Assembly: GCF_013365455.1 (NCBI RefSeq)
Contig: NZ_CP046578.1
Location: 840,001-872,000 of the forward strand
Direction: 5' to 3'
DNA: 32,000 bases
Source: Wolbachia endosymbiont of Dirofilaria (Dirofilaria) immitis
GTDB taxonomy: Bacteria > Pseudomonadota > Alphaproteobacteria > Rickettsiales > Anaplasmataceae
Below, piece by piece: positions 7,919 to 31,067 of this stretch. The stretch's first letter is position 1, and every line of letters begins with the position of its first letter. Below the pieces are notes generated by a model. It was not told where the DNA came from, ran no database searches, and saw nothing but the letters and a program-made list of their open reading frames with translations. Position numbers and translations under genes: made by a program.

Positions 7919-9193
7919 TTATGAAGAAACTTTACGATACCAAAACAAGTAAAGAGGTGTACCGCTTACAGTAAATAAGCTTGAGATTAGCAAGGTATTA
8001 ATAGGAGTTTCACATATTATCCAGCAGCAAAAGGTTGTTGCTATAACACCAACTAAAAGCTTGCAATAATTCCTTTCTTCTATAATAACCTTTAAAAAAG
8101 CAAGGCTGCACGTAAGGTAAATAAGTAAAAAGGAAATTACAGAAAAATCAATAATTGATGTAATTTGCTTAGCAAAATTATTACTTGAAGTGAGAATTAA
8201 CAAAATTGCAGTTCCAATTGAGCTTGTTACTATTCCCAAAAAAGGAGAACCATGCTTATTTCTTTTCGCAAAGAATTGTGGCATAAGTTTATCTTCCGCA
8301 AGACCAAAAGCAACTTGTCCACTAGATAAAACCCATGAGTTTAAACTGCCAACACAGAAGATAAATGCAATTATAGAAATAATCAAATGCCAACTACCAG
8401 AAAACATAACCCTTATCGCATCAACATATGGTGCTTTTGAATTCGCCAAATCGTTGCCATTAATTAGTCCCATAATTGTAAAACTATTAATAAAATATAT
8501 AATAGCAACACAGATTGTACCAAGTACTACAGCTTTTGGTATAGTTTTAGCTGGATCATTTATTGACCCTGCAGGTGCTGTTGCCAATTCAACTCCAACA
8601 AAACACCATACAGTCAGGAGTGTAGAACGTGCAAGAATTTGTGATATTGTAAGATTTGAGATTTTTTCACTTATAATAAAGTTGTTTCTATCAAAAAAAC
8701 ACAATGCCACCATAGGTATTGCAAGTAACACAGAAACTTTTATAACTGTGAGTAGGAGCTCAACACGTCCAGCAGCAGCTATTTCTCTTAAATTTATTAA
8801 CGTAATAACTGTAAGCAATAGTAACCCTAAAAGTAACCGCACACTTTGAACGTCTTCATAAAAAAATGGCGTAAGATAACCAACACCTACAATTACTAGA
8901 GCTGTTGTACTAACCCAGGAAATTACCCAATAAGTCCAACCAACAAAAAAGGCCACTGTAGAACCAAAAGCATATTTTGTATAAATATGAGGGCCTCCGG
9001 TTTCTGGAAACTTTGCACATAGTGTAGCGAACACTAAAGAAAGAGACACAGCACCAGTCCCTGATATTATCCAACTTATTAGGCTATAAATACCATATGG
9101 TGCAATGCTAACTGGAAGCATAAAAATCCCAGAGCCAATCTGGCTACTGATAACTAAAGCAAAAACTGTTAAGAAACCTATTTTATTTGACAC
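7919..9193 (-). CDS. APC-superfamily permease, basic amino acid/polyamine antiporter (APA, PotE/AdiC-like) family, paralog 1
   Basis: 424 aa with about 12 hydrophobic segments and the TM1 motif SSQIGSGIFMLP typical of APA antiporters. Starts at GTG 9193; there is no in-frame ATG near the N-terminus. Confidence 0.9.
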   Translation of the reverse strand: MSNKIGFLTVFALVISSQIGSGIFMLPVSIAPYGIYSLISWIISGTGAVSLSLVFATLCAKFPETGGPHIYTKYAFGSTVAFFVGWTYWVISWVSTTALVIVGVGYLTPFFYEDVQSVRLLLGLLLLTVITLINLREIAAAGRVELLLTVIKVSVLLAIPMVALCFFDRNNFIISEKISNLTISQILARSTLLTVWCFVGVELATAPAGSINDPAKTIPKAVVLGTICVAIIYFINSFTIMGLINGNDLANSKAPYVDAIRVMFSGSWHLIISIIAFIFCVGSLNSWVLSSGQVAFGLAEDKLMPQFFAKRNKHGSPFLGIVTSSIGTAILLILTSSNNFAKQITSIIDFSVISFLLIYLTCSLAFLKVIIEERNYCKLLVGVIATTFCCWIICETPINTLLISSLFTVSGTPLYLFWYRKVSS

Positions 9194-9291: not shown

Positions 9292-10566
9292 TCACCTTAT
9301 AGATTTGCGGTACCAAAGCAGATAAATAGGTGTTACGCTCAGGGGAAAGAGACTTGACATCAATAATGTCCTGATAGGAATCTCATATATTATCCAGCAA
9401 CAAAAAAGTATAGCCACGCCTCCAATCAGTAACTTGCAATATATCTTTTCTTGCATAGCAATCTTAAGAAAGGCAAAACTAGATACTAAGTAGATAAATA
9501 AGAATGAAACCACAGAGACATCAATTATTAAAGTTACTTGCTCAACAAAATTTTTGTTTGACGTTAGAACAAGCAAAACTATTACTCCTAAAGTACTTAG
9601 CATTATTCCATAAAAAGGAGCATCGTACTTATTTCTTCTAGTAAAAAGCCTTGGCATTAACTTGTCCTCTGCAAGACCTAAAGCAATTTGTCCATCAGCC
9701 AAGAACCAAGTATTTAAGTTACTTACAGAAACAATAAAAGCAACAACAGAAACGATTACATGCCAATTACCTTGAAACATAATTTTCACTGCATCAGCAT
9801 ATGGTGCCCTTGAATCAGCTAGGTCATTACCGCTTATTAATCCCATAATTGCAAAATTGTTAATAAAATATATAACAGCAACACAGATTGTACCAAGTAC
9901 TATGGCTCTTGGTATTGTCTTACCTGGATTATTAACAGATCCTGCAGATGCTGTTACTGATTCAAGTCCAACGAAACACCATAGAGCAAGAAGTGTAGAG
10001 TGAGCAAGAATCTGCGATGTTGTAAAGCTTGACAGTTCCTCACTTATAATAAAGTTATTTCTATCAAAAAAAAACAAAGCCGCCATAGGTATTGTAAGTA
10101 GTGCAATTATTTTAATAATAGTTAATAGAAGTTCAACACGTCCAGCAGTAGTCACCCCTCTTAAATTTATTAGCATAATAGCTAAAATCAATACCACTTC
10201 TAAAAGCAAACGTATATTTTGCATATCACTATAAAAAAGAGGAGCTAGATAACCAATACTTGCAATTGTTACAGCTGTTGAACTAACCCACGAGCTTATC
10301 CAATAAGTCCAACCAATAAAGAAAGCCACTGTAGAGCCAAAGGCATATTTTACGTAAACGTGAGGACCTCCAGTTTTTGGAAACTTTGCACAGAGAAAAG
10401 CAAAAACTAAAGCAAAAAATATAGCACCAAGCCCCGATATCATCCAGCTCATAGGACTATATATGCCATATGGAGCAAGACTAATTGGAAGCATGAAAAT
10501 TCCAGAGCCAATTTGACTACTAATAACTAAGGCAAAAACAGTCAAAAACCCTATTTTATCTGACAC
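9292..10566 (-). CDS. APC-superfamily permease, APA (PotE/AdiC-like) family, paralog 2
   Basis: Aligns without gaps to paralog 1 along its whole length. GTG at 10566 (VSDKIGFL) is homologous to the GTG start of paralog 1. The ORF track extends to TTG 10587. Confidence 0.88.
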   Translation of the reverse strand: MSDKIGFLTVFALVISSQIGSGIFMLPISLAPYGIYSPMSWMISGLGAIFFALVFAFLCAKFPKTGGPHVYVKYAFGSTVAFFIGWTYWISSWVSSTAVTIASIGYLAPLFYSDMQNIRLLLEVVLILAIMLINLRGVTTAGRVELLLTIIKIIALLTIPMAALFFFDRNNFIISEELSSFTTSQILAHSTLLALWCFVGLESVTASAGSVNNPGKTIPRAIVLGTICVAVIYFINNFAIMGLISGNDLADSRAPYADAVKIMFQGNWHVIVSVVAFIVSVSNLNTWFLADGQIALGLAEDKLMPRLFTRRNKYDAPFYGIMLSTLGVIVLLVLTSNKNFVEQVTLIIDVSVVSFLFIYLVSSFAFLKIAMQEKIYCKLLIGGVAILFCCWIIYEIPIRTLLMSSLFPLSVTPIYLLWYRKSIR

Positions 10567-10944
10567 AACGTTTTCTGGTTTTAGCAAACAGATTAATAAT
10601 TATTCTTGCCGCTCATGCAAGGTATTCTGTTCCTCAGTAGCTAATTTGTGTTATAGCGGCAAATTTTACTCACTAACAGTAGAGATATTTAGAAAACTTA
10701 AAACCTATCTACAGTCTTTTCCATAAAAGAATTAACCTCAACAAAAAAATATATTTACAAGTAGTGTGAAGATGCATACTTAATTTCATCTTGCATGCAG
10801 TACACTTTTCTAAGTCTTTTTTATAAATGAAATTTCATGCCTAGATTTCAGACACCTAACTTTTTCTCTTCAGCCAAGAGCTCTGACTGTCAATAATTCT
10901 TACATTTATCTTAGTAATCAGAGTTTAGTTAAATAAGATATACT

Positions 10945-11878
10945 TCATACTAAATCTAATATTTTAAACCTAACATTTTCAGTAATACCACCTGGCATAA
11001 CTGAAACCTTCACACCCTTGTTTATTCTCAAGTAGTTTATTAATTCATCAACTAATATATTAGGAGCAGAACCACCTGCAGTAATCCCTAACTTTTCTAT
11101 GCCCTGTAACCAACTCCTATTCACATAGTTATAGTTATCAATTAAATAAGCCCTTCTTCCTCTTGCAGTACACAGATCTAATAAGCGGTTTGAGTTCGCA
11201 CTATTTTTGCTTCCTACAATTAATACTATGTCTACAAACTCAGCTAGTTTTTTTGATAGCACTCTGCCTATTTTGTGTTGCATAGCATATATCTTTTAAA
11301 TTAGGACCTATAATGTTTGGAAATCTAAGCTTTAGGGCAGTAATAATTTTGCCAGTATCATCAACGCTTAGAGTGGTTTGTGTGATATAAGATAAATTAT
11401 CTGGATCTTTAACTTTTAAATCGTATACATCTTCTACAGTTTGTACTAAAGCAATAGGATTATCTACTCTTCCTCTAATTCCCTTAACCTCTGGATGAGT
11501 TTCATTCCCAATTAGAATTAATTCTTTACCATTATCCTCATATCCTTTTGCTTCTTTATGCACTTTGCTAACTAGAGGACATGTTGCATCAACCACTTGG
11601 ATACCCTTCCTTTTTACTTCCTCTTCTATATTTTTTGACACTCCATCTGCACTAAAAACTAATATCCCACCATTATCTTTAATATCCTTAATACTGCTTA
11701 CAAAAATCATTCCTTGTCTTTTAAAATCCTCTACCACATATGTTATTGTGAACAATCTCATGTAGTACATAAACTCGACGATTACCTTTGTATTTTTCTA
11801 AAGCAATAGCCCCAACATAGCCATTGCTCTTTTGACTCCCGCACAAAGCCCGCGTGGTTCAGTTAAAATAATTTCCAT
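10945..11878 (-). pseudogene. ispH: 4-hydroxy-3-methylbut-2-enyl diphosphate reductase (IspH/LytB), split into 4 frame segments by three 1-nt indels
   Basis: The ATG at 11878 gives MEIILTEPRGLCAGVKRAMAMLG, then a frame change at the GGGG run 11810-11813 (stop at 11798-11800). [22 protein letters not shown] follows, then a frame change near 11742. ORF 11240..11770 then reads [10 protein letters not shown]...DATCPLV...[14 protein letters not shown], with a frame change in the A7 run (11248-11254). ORF 10945..11283 completes it ([22 protein letters not shown]...GITAGGSAP). Total length is 934 nt, which is 3n+1. Confidence 0.85.
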
Positions 11879-13292
11879 TTTTTCCAAATTAGATTGGTAT
11901 ACAAGCATTACTCAAAAATAATGCTCAGCCCATTATGTCTTATAGTACTATTATTTTATATAATAGTCATTTTCATATATTTTCTTTAATACTTAATCAG
12001 CTGGGTGTCACAGGAAGCTTAAAAAAGCATACTAAAAATACAGACAGCCTAACATTTCGATAAAAATGGAGCAGTAAATATACTAATAATATTCATTGCA
12101 TATAAGTTCAATAAAAGTAAGAAATCCAGAGAGTATAACAGTACAACTGTATTCTATCTTAGATGGATATATAAAGGTTTATATAAAATGCTTACTTCAA
12201 AGAATTATCTGAATAAAAGAAAACTTAACCTTAAAGAAGCTATTGACAATAAAAAACACAGGTGTGTAAGGAATAGTTTTATGTGAAAACATAATTCTCA
12301 TAGCAATTTGTTTTCACACGTGCTCAGCTGTACTTATATAGATGGAGGAAGCATTACCAGAATTGAAGTGTATATAAATAAAGCTAGATCACAACGCTAT
12401 GTTACTCTGATACCACTAGGCAATCATGTTTAGCCATCTTTAGATCTACAAGTACAAAGTATAAGCACATGAGAAATTAGCTAAAACTATAAACAGGCAT
12501 CAAGCTCCCAGTAGAGTAAGAATTGTTTTAAATGGGAAAACATAAGATTATTTCGATAGTTAGAGTCCATGTAGTTTTAACCCTAATCTACAGAATAAAG
12601 CAAAAGATGCATAAAAGTTTAACCACACTAGTCTATAAGGTACACGTCATGTAGACTATATACTAAAACTCTTTATAACAGAGCTGCAGCATTTGATGCA
12701 TACGTTATAAAAATTAGTGATTTCACAATATATCAAAGTCAATACCTATTAGAGAATATATAATCCACGATCTTTATAAGCTTACCCCCCACCAACATTA
12801 GTGCAGCAAAAAATCGCTGTCAAATTAGGTATTAACAAATAAATAGAACACCTTAAAGATGCGAAGTTATTTTCACTTTTAAAAATAGAAATGCCAGAAA
12901 ATTTATACCAACACCCTAACCAAATAGAGTGAAAGCATTTTAATAACATTATCTTATAGTTAGAATAGCTGTAACTCTCATACACATTATATAAACTGCA
13001 GCAAAATTAGGCAACAGTAGAACATTCCACAACATAACTTCAATATTTAATAAAGAAAGCATTAGAGAACAGATTATTACAAGAAGCCCTCTAGGGGAGA
13101 TAAAAAAACTACTATACACAGCAGTAAGCTGAATCAAATATGATAAAAACATGAATATAGCACCGTTTATAGGAAAACTATACGCTTAACTAGATATATA
13201 TTACCGATAACCTCAGAGTATCATTATATCGAAGAGTGATTGCTGCACTCAGCTAAAAATGGTTATAAATAAAATATCACTTATACTAAGTG

Positions 13293-13658
13293 CTATACTT
13301 GAGGTGTAAATTGTATTTTCTTTATCAAAAACTTAAGTCTATAATTTTGTTTATCTTTATTGATACAAAGAAACCCATCTTCTGTTACTTTACAGTTCTC
13401 AGCGGCAATATCTAAATTGATTTTTTCACCACTTTCATTCATACTAAAACGAACCCTTGGCTCAGAAAAATCAACCACATCAACCCCAACTTTCTTTATT
13501 ACCTTCCCATCTAGAGAAATCAAATCAAACTCCCAAATATTATTTAGATCAATGTTCCCTATATAATAATTACACTTACCATCTGCGCAGTATGAACTTT
13601 CAACTACATAACCTTCACTAGGAAAGTCAATGAAAAAACCCCACAAATCATCTGACAT
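13293..13658 (-). CDS. Hypothetical acidic protein, 121 aa, 4 Cys, no recognisable domain
   Basis: ATG-initiated ORF with composition like neighbouring real genes. It has no TM segment or signal peptide and sits just downstream of a terminator-like hairpin. I recognised no homology. Confidence 0.45.
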   Translation of the reverse strand: MSDDLWGFFIDFPSEGYVVESSYCADGKCNYYIGNIDLNNIWEFDLISLDGKVIKKVGVDVVDFSEPRVRFSMNESGEKINLDIAAENCKVTEDGFLCINKDKQNYRLKFLIKKIQFTPQV

Positions 13659-13767: not shown

Positions 13768-14481
13768 TTACTTAATTCCTCTTGTTAACTTTTTTACCAT
13801 ACTATCAATCATATGCTTTATTCCTTGATATACAGAATACACTCCTTCATCGCTACGTATGTAAGCAGAACAGGAAAACACATTATACTTTTCATCTTCT
13901 ATTGATAACTCTGTATCACACTTTATATGCTCACCACCTAACTTTTCTATCAACTTTTCTCTATCATCTCCTATTGTCACCTTAATTCTATCCTTTCCTT
14001 TACCAATTTTACCACTTAGAATAAAAGCAACTATTGCTGGAGATATACATATTGCCCCTATTGGTTTTTTTGCAATAAAAAATTCAGAGACTAACCTTTC
14101 AAACTCAGGTAGTACTGTTACTATATCTTTGTTCTCAGCTAAGTCAGATAAATTCTTAGCAACCCCATATCCACCTGGTATAACTAACATATCAAAGTCT
14201 TTAACTTTTGCTTCTTTAAGGTCACATATCTCACCTCTCGCGATTCTTGCTGCTTCTATAAGTACATTCCTTTTTTCTTTCACTGCTTCCTTTGCTCTAT
14301 GGTTCATGACCTGTGCAACATCGATATCAGGAGCAAAACATTTAACTTCAACTTCTTGCTGATCAAGAACCAGCAAACTTAAGACTCCTTCTCTTACCTC
14401 AGTGCCGTCAAGGTGACCACACCCTGATAAAACTACAGCAGCTTTTAATTTTTTCTCACCCATAGAATACCTTATTTTCAT
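13768..14481 (-). CDS. elbB: ElbB-like DJ-1/PfpI-superfamily protein (class I glutamine amidotransferase-like)
   Basis: Collinear with E. coli ElbB: AAVVLSGCGHLDGTEVREGVLSLL...CFAPD...NHRAKEAVKEKRNVLIEAARIARGEI...LVIPGGYGVAKNLSD...PIGAICISPA. An alternative start is ATG 14463 (MGEKKLK), which has AAGG upstream. Confidence 0.9.
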   Translation of the reverse strand: MKIRYSMGEKKLKAAVVLSGCGHLDGTEVREGVLSLLVLDQQEVEVKCFAPDIDVAQVMNHRAKEAVKEKRNVLIEAARIARGEICDLKEAKVKDFDMLVIPGGYGVAKNLSDLAENKDIVTVLPEFERLVSEFFIAKKPIGAICISPAIVAFILSGKIGKGKDRIKVTIGDDREKLIEKLGGEHIKCDTELSIEDEKYNVFSCSAYIRSDEGVYSVYQGIKHMIDSMVKKLTRGIK

Positions 14482-15111
14482 ATAATCTAGGTATTGTAAT
14501 ACAAATTCTATATTTGGGAAGAATTAATTACTTATATTAACTATATTATAATTAATAATCAATTATGAATAAAATGCAGCACCTAGCTCAAGATTTAGCC
14601 TTAACTAAAGCGGAAGAATATACTTAATTCATTAAGTAATAATAAGAGCAGGAGGTAGTTGTTAAAAAACAATATTAAAAAATTAATAGAAGTAAAAAAT
14701 TCAAAAGATTAGCTAAATAAGTCAGTAAAGATCGGGTAACAATGAAAAAAAACTGTAATTTTAAACAATCGATCGTTAATCCAAAGAAAATTATAATGGA
14801 ACACAGTATTTAGTAACCGGTTTAATCATAGTAGCTATAGAACTTTATAGGAGAGCCACATATAAACACAGAGATGAAATAAAAAAAAGAGACAATTGGT
14901 ACAGGAAGAAAATTAATGTTTTTAAAAAATTGATAAAATTCTTAAAACTTGAATCTTAAAAAGAAAGAATAACTTTGATAAATTAAATCAGGAATTATCT
15001 AAATTTACTAGAGATAATTATGTATTAGGAAAAGAGAAAAACCAAAAGCCATCAGAAGCATGTTTCACAATGAAAAGCAACGGTAATTATAAAGGGGGGG
15101 AGTAACAAAGA

Positions 15112-15288
15112 ATGAAATTACCCAAAGCTTTTCCAAAAAAAGAATATGGAAAGGCTTATAGAAAAGTGCATTATACTAATGGAAAAGATATAGAAACACT
15201 TAAGGAAGCCCGTGGACAAATTTCAACTGCAATTCGGTCATTAGTAAAAATGAGAAAAAAGCAGAAAAAAAGGCCAACAAAAAAGTGA
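15112..15288 (+). CDS. Candidate small basic protein (58 aa), missed by the ORF track
   Basis: ATG at 15112 is preceded by GGGGGGGAG (15094-15102) at a 9-nt spacing, with an in-frame TAA just upstream. The product is MKLPKAFPKKEYGKAYRKVHYTNGKDIETLKEARGQISTAIRSLVKMRKKQKKRPTKK. It may instead be the last open fragment of a decayed gene. Confidence 0.3.
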   Translation: MKLPKAFPKKEYGKAYRKVHYTNGKDIETLKEARGQISTAIRSLVKMRKKQKKRPTKK

Positions 15289-15416
15289 AGTGCATTCCAG
15301 ATTCTCAAGTAGGCGATCCAAGTTTTCAAGAAATTAATAGGTAAGGAAAGGTAATCAGCCTCAAATAATTTGCCATAGCATAGTACTAATACAATTTTTC
15401 TCTAAAAGAAGCCGCT

Positions 15417-18292: not shown

Positions 18293-18407
18293 GATAACTT
18301 AAGCTAAGATAGCTCATTCTATCTAAATGAATAGATAAAAATCAATCTTTATGCAATTACCTTTTAACTACTAGTTAAACTAATCACCATATAATTCATC
18401 AGTGTAC

Positions 18408-18443
18408 AAAAAAATCGGTCAGATTAGCTCTAATCTGACCGAT
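18408..18443 (-). terminator. Strong Rho-independent terminator (minus strand)
   Basis: Stem TCGGTCAGATTA / TAATCTGACCGA (18415-18426 / 18431-18442, 12 perfect bp plus an A14:T43 pair) with a GCTC loop. On the minus strand it is followed by T7 (18408-18414). Confidence 0.6.
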
Positions 18444-19299
18444 AGCTCTAATAGTGAGGTAAGCTTCACTATAACATGTTCATTCTATAGTACTACATCC
18501 GTACACAATTTATTTTAAATTTATACACAAGCATTAGTAAATTATTTACTTCTTAAAAACAAAGTTTAGCATTGCTTTTTTTATAGCAGTACAAAGTTAA
18601 CTGTTCTCTCAGCTTTACGCTATCATATTAAAATGGTTATTGTAATACAAAGTTACTAATAATATATATATAGAATAATAGGTAAAGTACTGAGAAAATA
18701 GCAGTATAACAATTGTAATCTCACACTAGCTAGAGTGAAGAAAACTCTAAAAAGGGAGTTGAGTAACAGAAATTAAACTATAAGATCTTCTGAAAACTGT
18801 ACAGTATATGTTAACATTCCTTTGTGTTACATTCTAAGGAATTGCACAGAATGTTGTTACGTTTCCTTATATTTTACCTTCAGCCATAATAACTATGGTA
18901 ACAAAATTACATTTATCTAGCATACTTAAATACCCTATCGTGTAAATACTTTTTACCATAGTATTCCCTAAAACACTGTTTACACAGTCTGCACTATCAA
19001 CACCAAAAAGCTTTTTACATATTCCTAGATCTTTAACTGCACAGTGTTACATAAGCTTAAATTTATCACCGCCATCTTCACAAAAAGAAAATTTCCTTTT
19101 TTATTCACTACTACAGTTATAAGTCTATTACTTCTTTATCTTTTACTCAAAACTTACTACTACCTTTGCTTATGAAATATTATTCCTTTGAAAGGATAAG
19201 TAGTAAACAATATATTATAAAACTACCTAATAAAAAGAGTCACTATAATATTAATTATATTAATATTATACATTATAGAATAACTAATGTAAAATAGAT
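18444..19299 (-). pseudogene. Probable decayed 3' portion (NAD-binding/Fe-S half of the FNR/PyrK-like module) of the upstream oxidoreductase gene
   Basis: The 971-aa ORF stops 7 codons after the GPTG motif that ends an FNR-like FAD barrel. The same frame continues through many stops as ...LFLLGSFIIYCLLLILSKE*YFISKGSSKF*VKDKEVIDL..., and another frame holds the open fragment HCAVKDLGICKKLFGVDSADCVNSVLGNTMVKSIYTIGYLSMLDKCNFVTIVIMAEGKI. The region ends at the 18408-18443 terminator. The identification is weak. Confidence 0.35.
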
Positions 19300-29890: not shown

Positions 29891-29929
29891 TCAAATATGT
29901 TTTATAAGCTTCTTTTATAATGTTCTTAG

Positions 29930-30927
29930 TATAATAGCATATTTAAATTGCCTACAAATATAGCTTTCCACTTCTAACTGTTTACTTTGAAATTCTCACT
30001 TTCTTCCTATAATTTATAATTTTTACCAATTTTCCAAAAAAGTAAGCACCTATTTATAATTTTAAGAAAAGCAAATAAATTCTTGTAACCCTAAAAGGAC
30101 TAACTTCTTAACATAATTGATTTACTAAATTAGCAATATAACTATACGTTATTTTTCCTATGGAATTAATATTTCTTTAGTCATAGTACAGCGAAGATAA
30201 TAGTTAAGACAAAAATCATATAATATAAACAGTTACTAGAAATGTAATATATAACAAGTACTAAAATAGAATGTCAAAGCTGAGAAATTAGACAAGAATA
30301 GACTTAATATAAATTACAAACTCAATAATCAATTTAGTTACTAAATATATCTGTCAAGGATAAGTTACAAGAATAATAAAGTTTTTAATAAAAAAGGAGC
30401 TAATATTAACGATTAAAGAAAGTGATTACTTAGAAACTTTGCTGTAGCTCCCCCATATACTAATCACCAATATCTCCATCAACCTTAGCTCTCGAAGTTA
30501 ACTGCACTAGAACACATCAAATACTTAACAATATGCAAAGCTTGTTCACTAATATCTGGCTTGAAACCACTAAACCATCAGTGTTCACCTCAAGCTTACA
30601 AGTATACATGATATCCAACGCATGCTCTGCATCAATAACAATAAACGCACATAATTCTCCCTTTCTTCTGCAATCACATGCAAAGCAAGAATAGTTTTAC
30701 AGAACTCTCAGAACTGAATACCTCAATTATCATCCCTTTAGCAACCCTTCAATGCTAAGAGCTAAATTAACGCAATCGACCTTGTGAACATCGTGTCTAT
30801 TCCTCTACAAGATTTTGCCTAAATTTCATTATTGAATCACTACCAAACGCTTTTTCAATTTAACTTATTACACATTGTCTAATGCTCTTCGTTTATTATT
30901 ATCTCTTTCCTCTGAGCTGCTTGCCAT
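29930..30927 (-). pseudogene. recA: recA relic, heavily eroded (many frameshifts and stops; 3' boundary approximate)
   Basis: The ATG at 30927 gives MASSSEERDNNKRRALDNV followed by a stop. Frame-hopping recovers IEKAFGSDSIMKF; VAKGMIIEVFSSESSVKLFLL (Walker A relic at 30692-30715); ALHVIAEE; AFIVIDAEHALD (30613-30648); KPDISEQALHIVKYLMCSSAVNF; GGATAKFLSNH; and NFSALTFYFS (about 30250-30280). All occur in RecA order. Confidence 0.85.
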
Positions 30928-31067
30928 GAATCATTTATTAATTATATAACCTTCATATTAATCGAATATTAATAACTTGCCAAGGGTTTTCTAACAACAA
31001 GAAACATTATCATAAAAAATTAGCTACCAAAAATTACATTAAAATAGAAATCAAACAGGCATTTATA

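Follow-up and report, generated by a model that had tools for sequence, protein, structure and literature searches.

We report that the ispH (lytB) locus of wDimm, the supergroup C Wolbachia of Dirofilaria immitis, at positions 10945-11878 on the minus strand of the window (the whole stretch of DNA that was analysed, 32,000 nucleotides), is, with a probability that we put at roughly 0.88, a true orthologous pseudogene, resulting from a loss late in the wDimm lineage, and that this loss would leave wDimm with a prenyl supply from its host and with an MEP pathway that ends blindly or carries little flux. Inactivation of the gene, as proposed in an earlier sequence-only reading of this DNA, is borne out by three insertions together with the loss of two diphosphate contacts. 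A more decayed remnant of ispH at the same slot in Onchocerca Wolbachia is a new context for the locus: loss of ispH is a theme of supergroup C and not a one-off, and since these relatives carry a more decayed copy the wDimm ispH is an ordinary pseudogene in ordinary reductive decay.

The ispH locus of wDimm and its lesions

Translation of the minus strand in three frames gave four collinear IspH pieces that together span 934 nt, compared with 930 nt (309 codons) in the intact Wolbachia orthologues. The frame was repaired by removal of GG and of the C at 11742, which gives the family length of 309 aa and the HNKY motif; an alternative repair (one G added and an A near 11741 removed), giving 310 aa, was dropped after alignment to intact orthologues. 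With the NCBIfam IspH model NF002190 (cut-off 389 bits) the repaired wDimm IspH reached 413 bits, and with TIGR00216 (cut-off 187.85) it reached 286.5 bits; it also matched chains of the E. coli IspH crystal structures (PDB 3KE8, 4H4C) over residues 1-305 with E = 1.4e-86, i.e. with full-length collinear homology. Collinearity is likewise full-length, and the length equal, with intact Wolbachia IspH (wBm, wDcau and wMel-type; 309 aa), and the identity to about 60 intact Wolbachia IspH is 75-80%. The sequence-only reading had assembled the fragments in these 934 nt into a complete, collinear IspH, and the frame translation, NF002190 and the E. coli structures agree with this. Mean identity to other Wolbachia IspH is 78% for wDimm, which is no lower than the 79% of the intact supergroup J genes, and the overall divergence therefore does not show decay.

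The lesions were placed using a codon-level DNA alignment of wDimm ispH with four intact 930-nt Wolbachia ispH genes. Instead of an uninterrupted ORF of ~309 codons, wDimm has four frame fragments separated by three insertions with a net length change of +4 nt (+2, +1, +1), and after repair there is no in-frame stop. All four fragments and all three lesions are given here on the minus strand. Fragment 1 (11798..11878, frame 0) starts with MEIILTEPRGLCAGVKRAMAML and runs from the ATG at 11878 to a TAG at 11800-11798, covering codons 1 to ~23, and it includes Cys12 (PRGLCAG) and the F11L change (codon 11848-11846). Lesion 1, at the G4 run (11810..11813), reads TTGGGGCT where the intact orthologues have TT--AGCT, which is +2 nt and the frame-equivalent of the 1-nt loss that had been suggested for this site. 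Fragment 2 (11721..11809, frame 2) is entered after the G run, keeps His41 and runs into a TAA at 11723-11721. Lesion 2 is a single C inserted at 11742 in the non-repetitive context AATAA[C]ATAT, and it is absent from the Wolbachia of Onchocerca ochengi (wOo, HE660029.1) and of O. volvulus (wOv, HG810405.1) as well as from the intact orthologues. Fragment 3 (11240..11770, frame 0) corresponds to the listed 176-aa ORF from YVVEDF onward, ends at a TGA at 11242-11240, and carries Asp at the position of His74, Cys96, the H121N change (11506-11504), His124, Glu126, Thr167 and Cys197. Lesion 3 is +1 nt in the A7 run (11248..11254), which is A6 in the intact orthologues. Fragment 4 (10945..11283, frame 1) corresponds to the listed 112-aa ORF, in which the IspH reading begins after the A7 run (LAEFVD); it includes Ser225-Ala226-Asn227, the A268G change (11073-11071) and Ser269, and ends in ..LDLV with the native stop TGA at 10947-10945. 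The three indel sites are located where the sequence-only reading had put them, but the first is a gain of 2 nt and not a single-base change.

Relative to intact Wolbachia and E. coli IspH, the wDimm copy differs by the three breaks of the frame and by five replacements (F11L, H74D, H121N, S226A and A268G). Across 59 Wolbachia IspH there are 92 invariant columns, and at these columns the five are private to wDimm; the majority of the 59 have no private replacement there, and one alone reaches the number seen in wDimm. The positions of H74D, S226A and A268G are invariant across 118 homologues. The His74-to-Asp change (CAT to GAT, codon 11645..11647), already noted from the letters, was confirmed by the ortholog alignment, the diphosphate-binding histidine being present in 59/59 other Wolbachia IspH and in 118/118 homologues. 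Ser226, the codon of which (11197..11199) encodes Ala in wDimm and Ser in 118/118 homologues, is a diphosphate contact in the E. coli structures; the diphosphate-binding motif Ser225-Ser226-Asn227 is incomplete and reads S-A-N. The sequence-only reading missed S226A, F11L, H121N and A268G. Also incomplete, with Asp for His74, is the set of substrate histidines His41/His74/His124, which take part in substrate binding while Glu126 and Thr167 belong to the proton relay (PMC9745026). His41, His124, Glu126, Thr167, Ser225, Asn227 and Ser269 are kept. The three [4Fe-4S] cysteines, C12, C96 and C197, are all present in the repaired reading, as had been claimed. In the actual DNA, C12 is in a separate frame fragment from C96 and C197, and no possible wDimm product holds all three.

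Synteny with Onchocerca Wolbachia and timing of the loss

An ispH remnant, with no gene called, is present at the same syntenic slot in wOo, wOv and four draft Onchocerca Wolbachia, and ispH is a pseudogene in 6/6 of the Onchocerca Wolbachia loci fetched. The slot order in these genomes is elbB, a 121-aa ORF, the ispH remnant, two APC permeases and asd, and the neighbours of wDimm ispH are those in wOo and wOv; elbB is also near ispH in WOLB0025, and a class B PBP gene adjoins ispH in four other Wolbachia. The wOo and wOv remnants have the slot, an altered G-run site and the loss of His74 in common with wDimm but are further decayed, with a GTG start, in-frame stops (five of them derived from substitutions), extra indels and a deletion of ~187 nt that removes the QTTLS...Cys197 region including Thr167; in wDimm there are just three indels, and no substitution has created a stop. 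A candidate break in topA at the start of the window was rejected; the window edge truncates the gene, and its alignment to wOo TopA runs end to end.

On the wDimm branch ispH has undergone 18 synonymous and 24 non-synonymous changes, with a pN/pS of 0.36 compared with 0.18 in four intact neighbour genes, a marginal excess (Fisher P = 0.08). The neutral expectation for this branch is 30 +/- 2.8 non-synonymous changes (P = 0.027 for <=24), and the wOo branch is also below its neutral non-synonymous expectation (P = 0.014). Total change on the wDimm branch is 0.059 per site in ispH and 0.058 in intact controls, whereas on the wOo branch it is 0.112 per site in ispH vs 0.044 in the controls, i.e. 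2.5x the intact-gene rate. Between wDimm and wOo the JC distance is 0.115-0.158 in intact genes, rises to 0.19-0.21 in ispH and reaches 0.28-0.34 in spacers. Taken as a record of substitutions, these data indicate that ispH was probably lost late on wDimm's own branch. Purifying selection would then have acted on wDimm ispH through most of the time since the split from the Onchocerca Wolbachia, and the loss in the Onchocerca lineage would have been separate and earlier. Since ispH was lost in both lineages, the need for it would already have been relaxed in supergroup C. The decay had earlier been called young, and this stands in comparison with the class B PBP pseudogene next to it and with the Onchocerca remnant; "recent", however, holds only relative to the wDimm/wOo split, because the substitution analysis places the loss late on the wDimm branch.

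An older loss, in which ispH was inactivated in the supergroup C ancestor by a +1 at the G run and the wDimm copy has since decayed slowly, accounts for several of these observations. The G-run site is altered at the same place in wDimm and in all six Onchocerca loci (ATT-AGGCTATT, i.e. +1, in 6/6 Onchocerca Wolbachia and GTTGGGGCTATT in wDimm, compared with ATT--AGCTATT in intact genes), and one +1 in the common ancestor with a second +1 in wDimm takes fewer indel events than independent hits, which is the most parsimonious course and conflicts with a late independent loss. His74 has also been lost in both lineages, but the two replacements are different codons (Asp in wDimm, Tyr in wOo/wOv). 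Against an old loss are moreover the shortage of non-synonymous changes on both branches, the agreement of wDimm ispH with its intact neighbours in total change, the lack of substitution-derived stops in wDimm compared with five in wOo, and the wDimm-wOo distance of ispH, which is well under that of the spacers; and if the ancestor had one extra codon, in frame, at the mutable G run, and this was then broken independently, both the shared site and the late loss would be accounted for. Because both branches depart from neutrality, we judge a single shared G-run frameshift to be less likely than parallel loss, and an ancestral inactivation to be unlikely.

Assembly error and recoding

It appears very improbable that ispH is intact and functional and that its indels arose as homopolymer or assembly errors, the assembly being PacBio-based. 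Two of the three lesion sites are homopolymer runs (G4 and A7), the wDimm genome was derived from PacBio CCS reads with a filter of >90% predicted accuracy (PMC8116671), and the repaired gene has no in-frame stop and a mean identity to intact orthologues like that of supergroup J. However, the assembly is a hybrid that also used 118 million Illumina reads (PMC8116671), the C inserted at 11742 is outside any repeat, H74D, S226A and the three other replacements at invariant positions are beyond the reach of indel errors, and the sister lineage lost ispH independently. In addition, the independent 2012 draft, wDi 2.2, lists two neighbouring gene models as IspH, peg.67 and peg.68, at wDi22.scaf1:70937-71755 (819 nt vs 826 nt for the two ORFs here), which are followed by a putrescine-ornithine antiporter model, antiporter genes being present likewise here, and the N-terminal ~110 nt of ispH are in no gene model of the draft (PMC4289336 and its supplements). 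As this draft also splits IspH into two adjacent models over a similar span, an assembly error is unlikely; the support that it gives is indirect and consists of gene-model counts and the span of the locus. GroEL is also represented by two gene models in wDi 2.2, and split models in this draft are therefore not always real.

No wDimm IspH protein was found among the database matches, though the BamA and Asd encoded in the window had wDimm matches there at 100% identity, which further speaks against an intact gene at this locus and makes an intact annotated second ispH copy unlikely. In our literature search we found no published report of wDimm ispH as a pseudogene.

Both ispH fragments are transcribed in D. 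immitis adult females at ordinary levels (FPKM ~175; PMC4289336 supplements). Transcription of pseudogenes is common in wOo, where no pseudogene peptides were found even when transcription was high. In a promoter and terminator scan, promoter-like matches were below those in shuffled controls and terminator-like matches were about as expected. Some AT-rich endosymbionts rescue genes with frameshifts by poly(A) slippage. Although one of the lesions is an A7 run and both large fragments are transcribed, it is scarcely credible that wDimm makes a functional IspH through transcriptional slippage, ribosomal frameshifting or association of split polypeptides: three separate corrections would be required, of which 11742 is at a non-repetitive site and another needs a correction of 2 nt, the A7 and G4 runs offer little length for efficient slippage, no fragment has all three cluster cysteines, correction of the frame would still leave His74 and Ser226 replaced, and in wOo even highly transcribed pseudogenes gave no peptides. 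The wDimm ispH does not match the pattern of recoding at a single slippery site within an otherwise intact coding sequence.

Prenyl precursors and the MEP pathway

The wDi 2.2 draft has single RAST gene models for IspC, IspD, IspE, IspG, IspA and UppS (PMC4289336 supplements), and the DXP synthase gene is absent from wDimm, as from wBm (PMC4289336). Isoprenoid synthesis in wOo has been described as "severely restricted" (Darby et al. 2012, PMC3514676), and of the terpenoid-backbone reactions only 2 are on the side of wOv and 12 on that of the nematode (PMC5310847). With ispH inactivated, wDimm would be unable to turn HMBPP into IPP/DMAPP, and its MEP pathway would either be a blind end at HMBPP or carry little flux. 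As wDimm is without the IspH step but has IspA and UppS models, host-derived prenyl precursors are most probable; these would be drawn from the terpenoid-backbone (mevalonate-type) pathway of the nematode, in the same way as Rickettsia draws on its host. Rickettsia parkeri, which is described as dependent on host isoprenoids in Ahyong et al. 2019 (PMC6854040), likewise belongs to the Rickettsiales and is obligately intracellular; it has no IPP/DMAPP of its own and needs prenyl carriers for its envelope, and by analogy such dependence would be a likely outcome for wDimm. Judged from this parallel, uptake of host prenyl precursors would be the likeliest consequence of the loss of ispH, and scavenging of host isoprenoids, which the sequence-only reading had offered as its alternative, is a better-supported consequence than accumulation of HMBPP. 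Rickettsia is not known to have any part of the MEP pathway. In contrast, gene models for IspC, IspD, IspE and IspG remain in wDimm, which would therefore represent an intermediate state.

In lytB-deficient E. coli, which is said, in work by Hintz and colleagues from 2001 and in related studies, to accumulate HMBPP, the missing enzyme is the one that is lost in wDimm. These E. coli are, however, engineered and have the full upstream pathway including Dxs together with a mevalonate bypass, whereas wDimm is without the first enzyme (PMC4289336). Accumulation of HMBPP and stimulation of V-gamma9/V-delta2 cells would need flux from IspC to IspG without a DXP synthase gene. We regard it as quite unlikely that wDimm, as a bacterium naturally null for ispH, keeps the steps from IspC to IspG running and makes HMBPP its end product, which would accumulate or be released to the worm and the mammalian host. 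D. immitis has the dog as its natural host, and it is in primates that V-gamma9/V-delta2 cells reactive to phosphoantigens are established. If HMBPP were a dead end in wDimm, phosphoantigen output from the heartworm would be unusually high, with relevance to human pulmonary dirofilariasis, and wDimm would be a living intermediate in a stepwise loss of the MEP pathway that is further advanced in the Onchocerca Wolbachia.

The heartworm transcriptome paper named the MEP pathway an "ideal target" for anti-Wolbachia therapy and counted IspH as present and weakly expressed (PMC4289336), and similar reasoning led to a test of fosmidomycin in Brugia malayi (PMC7419141). Loss of ispH in wDimm undercuts the MEP pathway as a drug target in heartworm and Onchocerca worms. 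If wDimm has no working last step, and if most of the pathway is gone from the Onchocerca Wolbachia, MEP targeting should be ineffective against heartworm and river blindness, even if it is effective in Brugia, and the host-side prenyl supply would be the relevant dependency instead. Otherwise, we are dealing with ordinary reductive genome evolution, and the practical relevance is modest. For the supergroup, the ispH locus provides a dated snapshot of the erosion of a pathway, in which one gene has been lost in two sister lineages that are at different stages of decay.

Decay of ispH in the heartworm symbiont

Translation of the minus strand of positions 10700-12100 in three frames gave four collinear pieces of one IspH protein in wDimm, the Wolbachia of Dirofilaria immitis. 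IspH (LytB) is the HMBPP reductase that ends the MEP pathway and forms the isoprenoid precursors IPP/DMAPP. The first piece, in frame 0, begins with MEIILTEPRGLCAGVKRAMAML and stops at TAG (11800-11798), the second, in frame 2, stops at TAA (11723-11721), the third is again in frame 0, includes YVVEDF, DATCPLV and QTTLSVDD and stops at TGA (11242-11240), and the fourth, in frame 1, carries GGSAP and ends with LDLV at TGA (10947-10945). From the ATG at 11878 through the final stop the gene measures 934 nt. A DNA alignment with four intact Wolbachia ispH genes (wDcau, WOLB0025 and the symbionts of Pentalonia and Tyrophagus), all of 930 nt (309 codons), revealed three insertions: 2 nt at the G4 run (11813-11810; TTGGGGCT vs TT--AGCT in the intact genes, TT--CACC in wDcau), a C at 11742 in non-repetitive sequence (AATAA[C]ATAT), and one A in the A7 run at 11254-11248, which is A6 in the intact genes. 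The net gain of 4 nt accounts for the length of 934. The sequence-only reading had counted three single-base indels; its frame arithmetic was right, and a gain of 2 nt describes the first lesion better.

Removal of the four inserted bases gave a 309-aa protein with the HNKY motif of the family and no internal stops. A repaired translation scores 413 bits against the NCBIfam IspH model NF002190 (curated cut-off 389) and aligns with E. coli IspH crystal-structure chains over residues 1-305 (E = 1.4e-86). Together with the three-frame translation this establishes that ispH is broken at 10945-11878, as first proposed. The top IspH matches are from Wolbachia throughout (75-80% identity), with supergroup C strains, to which wDimm belongs, absent among them.

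At the 92 alignment columns invariant across 59 other full-length Wolbachia IspH sequences, five replacements are private to the repaired wDimm protein (F11L, H74D, H121N, S226A and A268G, E. coli numbering); 41 of the 59 have none at these columns, and a single one reaches five. His74, Ser226 and Ala268 are invariant in 118 of 118 full-length homologues retrieved, a set including other Anaplasmataceae and free-living alphaproteobacteria, and the change of His74 to Asp (GAT codon, 11647-11645, minus strand) noticed initially is thus borne out, as is the retention of the cluster cysteines Cys12, Cys96 and Cys197. Also kept are His41, His124, Glu126, Thr167, Ser225, Asn227 and Ser269. Ser226 is part of the S-S-N diphosphate-binding motif seen in E. 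coli IspH structures. His74 is one of three substrate-binding histidines (PMC9745026). With two diphosphate contacts lost, and no reading of the DNA giving a product that contains the three cluster ligands together, the locus has the homology and cysteines of the family and lacks an intact reading frame, His74 and Ser226: it is a decayed IspH/LytB family member that works like any pseudogene, i.e. not at all.

Four arguments point to real lesions, not assembly errors. One insertion, the C at 11742, sits outside any homopolymer, and indel errors cannot yield five replacements at invariant positions. The protein collection searched holds the wDimm proteome and has no wDimm IspH, so public annotation appears to give the locus no protein. 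The genome (CP046578) was assembled from PacBio CCS and Illumina reads (PMC8116671), and the independent 2012 draft of the same symbiont (wDi 2.2) has two consecutive IspH models, peg.67 and peg.68 (jointly wDi22.scaf1:70937-71755, 819 nt), followed by a putrescine-ornithine antiporter model (PMC4289336 supplements), just as antiporter genes come after the two large ispH ORFs here (10945-11770, 826 nt); from an intact gene one model of ~930 nt would be expected. Some caution is needed, since GroEL is likewise split into two models in that draft (peg.123 and peg.124; PMC4289336 Table S9), through either a local error or a second groEL-like fragment, and a split model in that draft is by itself no proof. 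Transcripts of both ispH fragments are present in adult females at ~175 FPKM each, similar to many housekeeping genes in the same table (PMC4289336 supplements), and transcription of pseudogenes without protein is documented in wOo, the Wolbachia of Onchocerca ochengi.

Onchocerca remnants and timing of the loss

After wDimm itself, the closest relatives are wOo and wOv (the latter from O. volvulus), with 83-88% protein identity. Syntenic regions were fetched via the Asd proteins from wOo (L082), wOv (L085) and four draft Onchocerca Wolbachia (L083, L084, L086, L087). These loci share with the window the order ffh, elbB, a 121-aa ORF, a gap without called gene, two APC-family permeases and asd, and tblastn and blastn placed an ispH remnant inside the gap. 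Its start codon is replaced by GTG, a TAA lies within the HE(I/V)VHN motif, TAC-TGA stands at the position of His74-Gly, and in addition to several further indels and five substitution-derived stops a deletion of ~187 nt takes out the QTTLS, Cys197 and S-S-N regions. Loss of ispH is thus a feature of supergroup C and not of wDimm alone.

Branch changes were assigned by parsimony with wDcau and three others as outgroups. The wDimm ispH branch has 18 synonymous and 24 non-synonymous changes (pN/pS 0.36, 0.059 changes per site) and that of wOo 33 and 47 (0.39, 0.112), where four intact neighbours (apaG, purK, trhO and asd) have 95 and 67 in wDimm (0.18, 0.058) and 73 and 51 in wOo (0.18, 0.044). 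Change in ispH hence equals that of the intact controls in wDimm and is ~2.5 times the controls in wOo. When the observed mutations were re-dealt over the ancestral sequence, the neutral non-synonymous expectation was 30.0 +/- 2.8 for wDimm and 56.3 +/- 3.9 for wOo (probability of values as low as observed, 0.027 and 0.014), so both copies were under constraint over part of each branch. Between wDimm and wOo the JC distance is 0.115-0.158 in intact genes, rises to 0.19-0.21 in ispH and reaches 0.28-0.34 in alignable spacers.

We read these substitution patterns as two probably separate losses of ispH, an earlier one in the Onchocerca lineage and a late one in wDimm. From the mixture of the two classes of change, synonymous and non-synonymous, and from the three indels, at a rate of roughly one to every ten neutral substitutions, we estimate roughly that the wDimm loss would fall within the last 5-40% of its branch. 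The inactivation, initially called recent, would be late on that branch, and the word holds only in this relative sense, as the wDimm/wOo split is itself old. A frameshift inherited from before that split would explain why the six Onchocerca loci all carry +1 nt (ATT-AGGCTATT) at the very G-run site where wDimm has +2 nt, but the substitution pattern of the branches argues against it and we consider it unlikely. Under independent loss the coincidence would come either from a mutational hotspot or from an extra in-frame codon, already present in the ancestor, that was disrupted twice.

Neighbourhood of ispH

The window has ~32% G+C, a negative GC skew in every 2-kb window past the first (lowest -0.27) and a majority of genes on the minus strand, in line with the marked asymmetry between strands and the conserved synteny described in supergroup C genomes. 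Next to ispH, in head-to-head orientation, the gene of a class B penicillin-binding protein (FtsI/PBP2-type transpeptidase; 11945-13174, plus strand) survives as a heavily decayed remnant, in three or more frame-shifted pieces with only 30-41% identity to the intact ~520-aa gene that adjoins ispH in four other Wolbachia; wOo and wOv keep a shorter remnant of roughly the first 130 codons. Its decay long predates the ispH lesion, and loss of this peptidoglycan transpeptidase in supergroup C may merit separate study.

Just downstream of ispH are two tandem paralogous APC-family antiporter genes of the arginine/agmatine or putrescine-ornithine type (7919-9193 and 9292-10587, minus strand), annotated in one draft Onchocerca Wolbachia as a 912-aa fusion of the two (L084 1207-3945); in wOv the second is called with only 328 aa (L085 8557-9543). 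The 121-aa ORF (13293-13658, minus strand), between elbB and the decayed block, has no NCBIfam match; its conservation without gaps in wOo (82% identity; L082 4564-4929), and weakly in a mite Wolbachia (48%), makes a real small gene probable. An intact ElbB-type DJ-1/PfpI glyoxalase gene (13768-14481, minus strand) lies ~1.9 kb upstream of the dead ispH, as elbB also lies near ispH in WOLB0025 and wOo/wOv; the historical name, "enhancing lycopene biosynthesis", is its only isoprenoid link. Spacers of ~0.9-1.2 kb without ORFs of at least 90 aa occur at 1257-2155, 14482-15416, 18293-19299 and 29893-31067, and the divergence of the elbB-ffh spacer from wOo (JC distance 0.34, many indels) suggests that they are neutrally decaying former genes.

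Isoprenoid precursor supply

The wDi draft has single gene models for each of IspC, IspD, IspE, IspG, IspA and UppS (PMC4289336 supplements), and DXP synthase, the first pathway enzyme, is missing as in wBm, the Wolbachia of Brugia malayi (PMC4289336). wDimm would be unable to convert HMBPP to IPP/DMAPP, yet has kept the consumers, and the most economical explanation would be that it takes up prenyl diphosphate precursors of the worm. The terpenoid-backbone pathway is complete on the nematode side in related filariae (PMC5310847), and the proposed uptake resembles the host dependence of Rickettsia parkeri, which obtains the equivalent from its host (PMC6854040). A natural pathway ending at HMBPP, in which IspC to IspG would still carry flux and HMBPP may build up, is improbable in wDimm, and activation of V-gamma9/V-delta2 T cells through wDimm HMBPP is speculation. 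Such an effect is not known to matter outside primate hosts, and the natural heartworm host is the dog.

Among described cases, wOo and wOv with their eroded isoprenoid pathway come closest: isoprenoid synthesis in wOo is "severely restricted" (PMC3514676), and in a metabolic reconstruction wOv supplies only 2 terpenoid-backbone reactions and the nematode side 12 (PMC5310847), with both of which the Onchocerca remnant agrees. In a literature search no paper described wDimm ispH as a pseudogene; the only one to discuss the MEP pathway of wDi lists IspH among the genes present, calls transcription "extremely low" and regards the pathway as an ideal drug target (PMC4289336). Fosmidomycin was later tried on B. 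malayi. The wDimm pseudogene is one more example, new and of modest use, of a familiar process, and would not surprise a specialist on filarial Wolbachia; it corrects one pathway reconstruction and predicts that MEP-pathway inhibitors would be ineffective against heartworm or Onchocerca Wolbachia.
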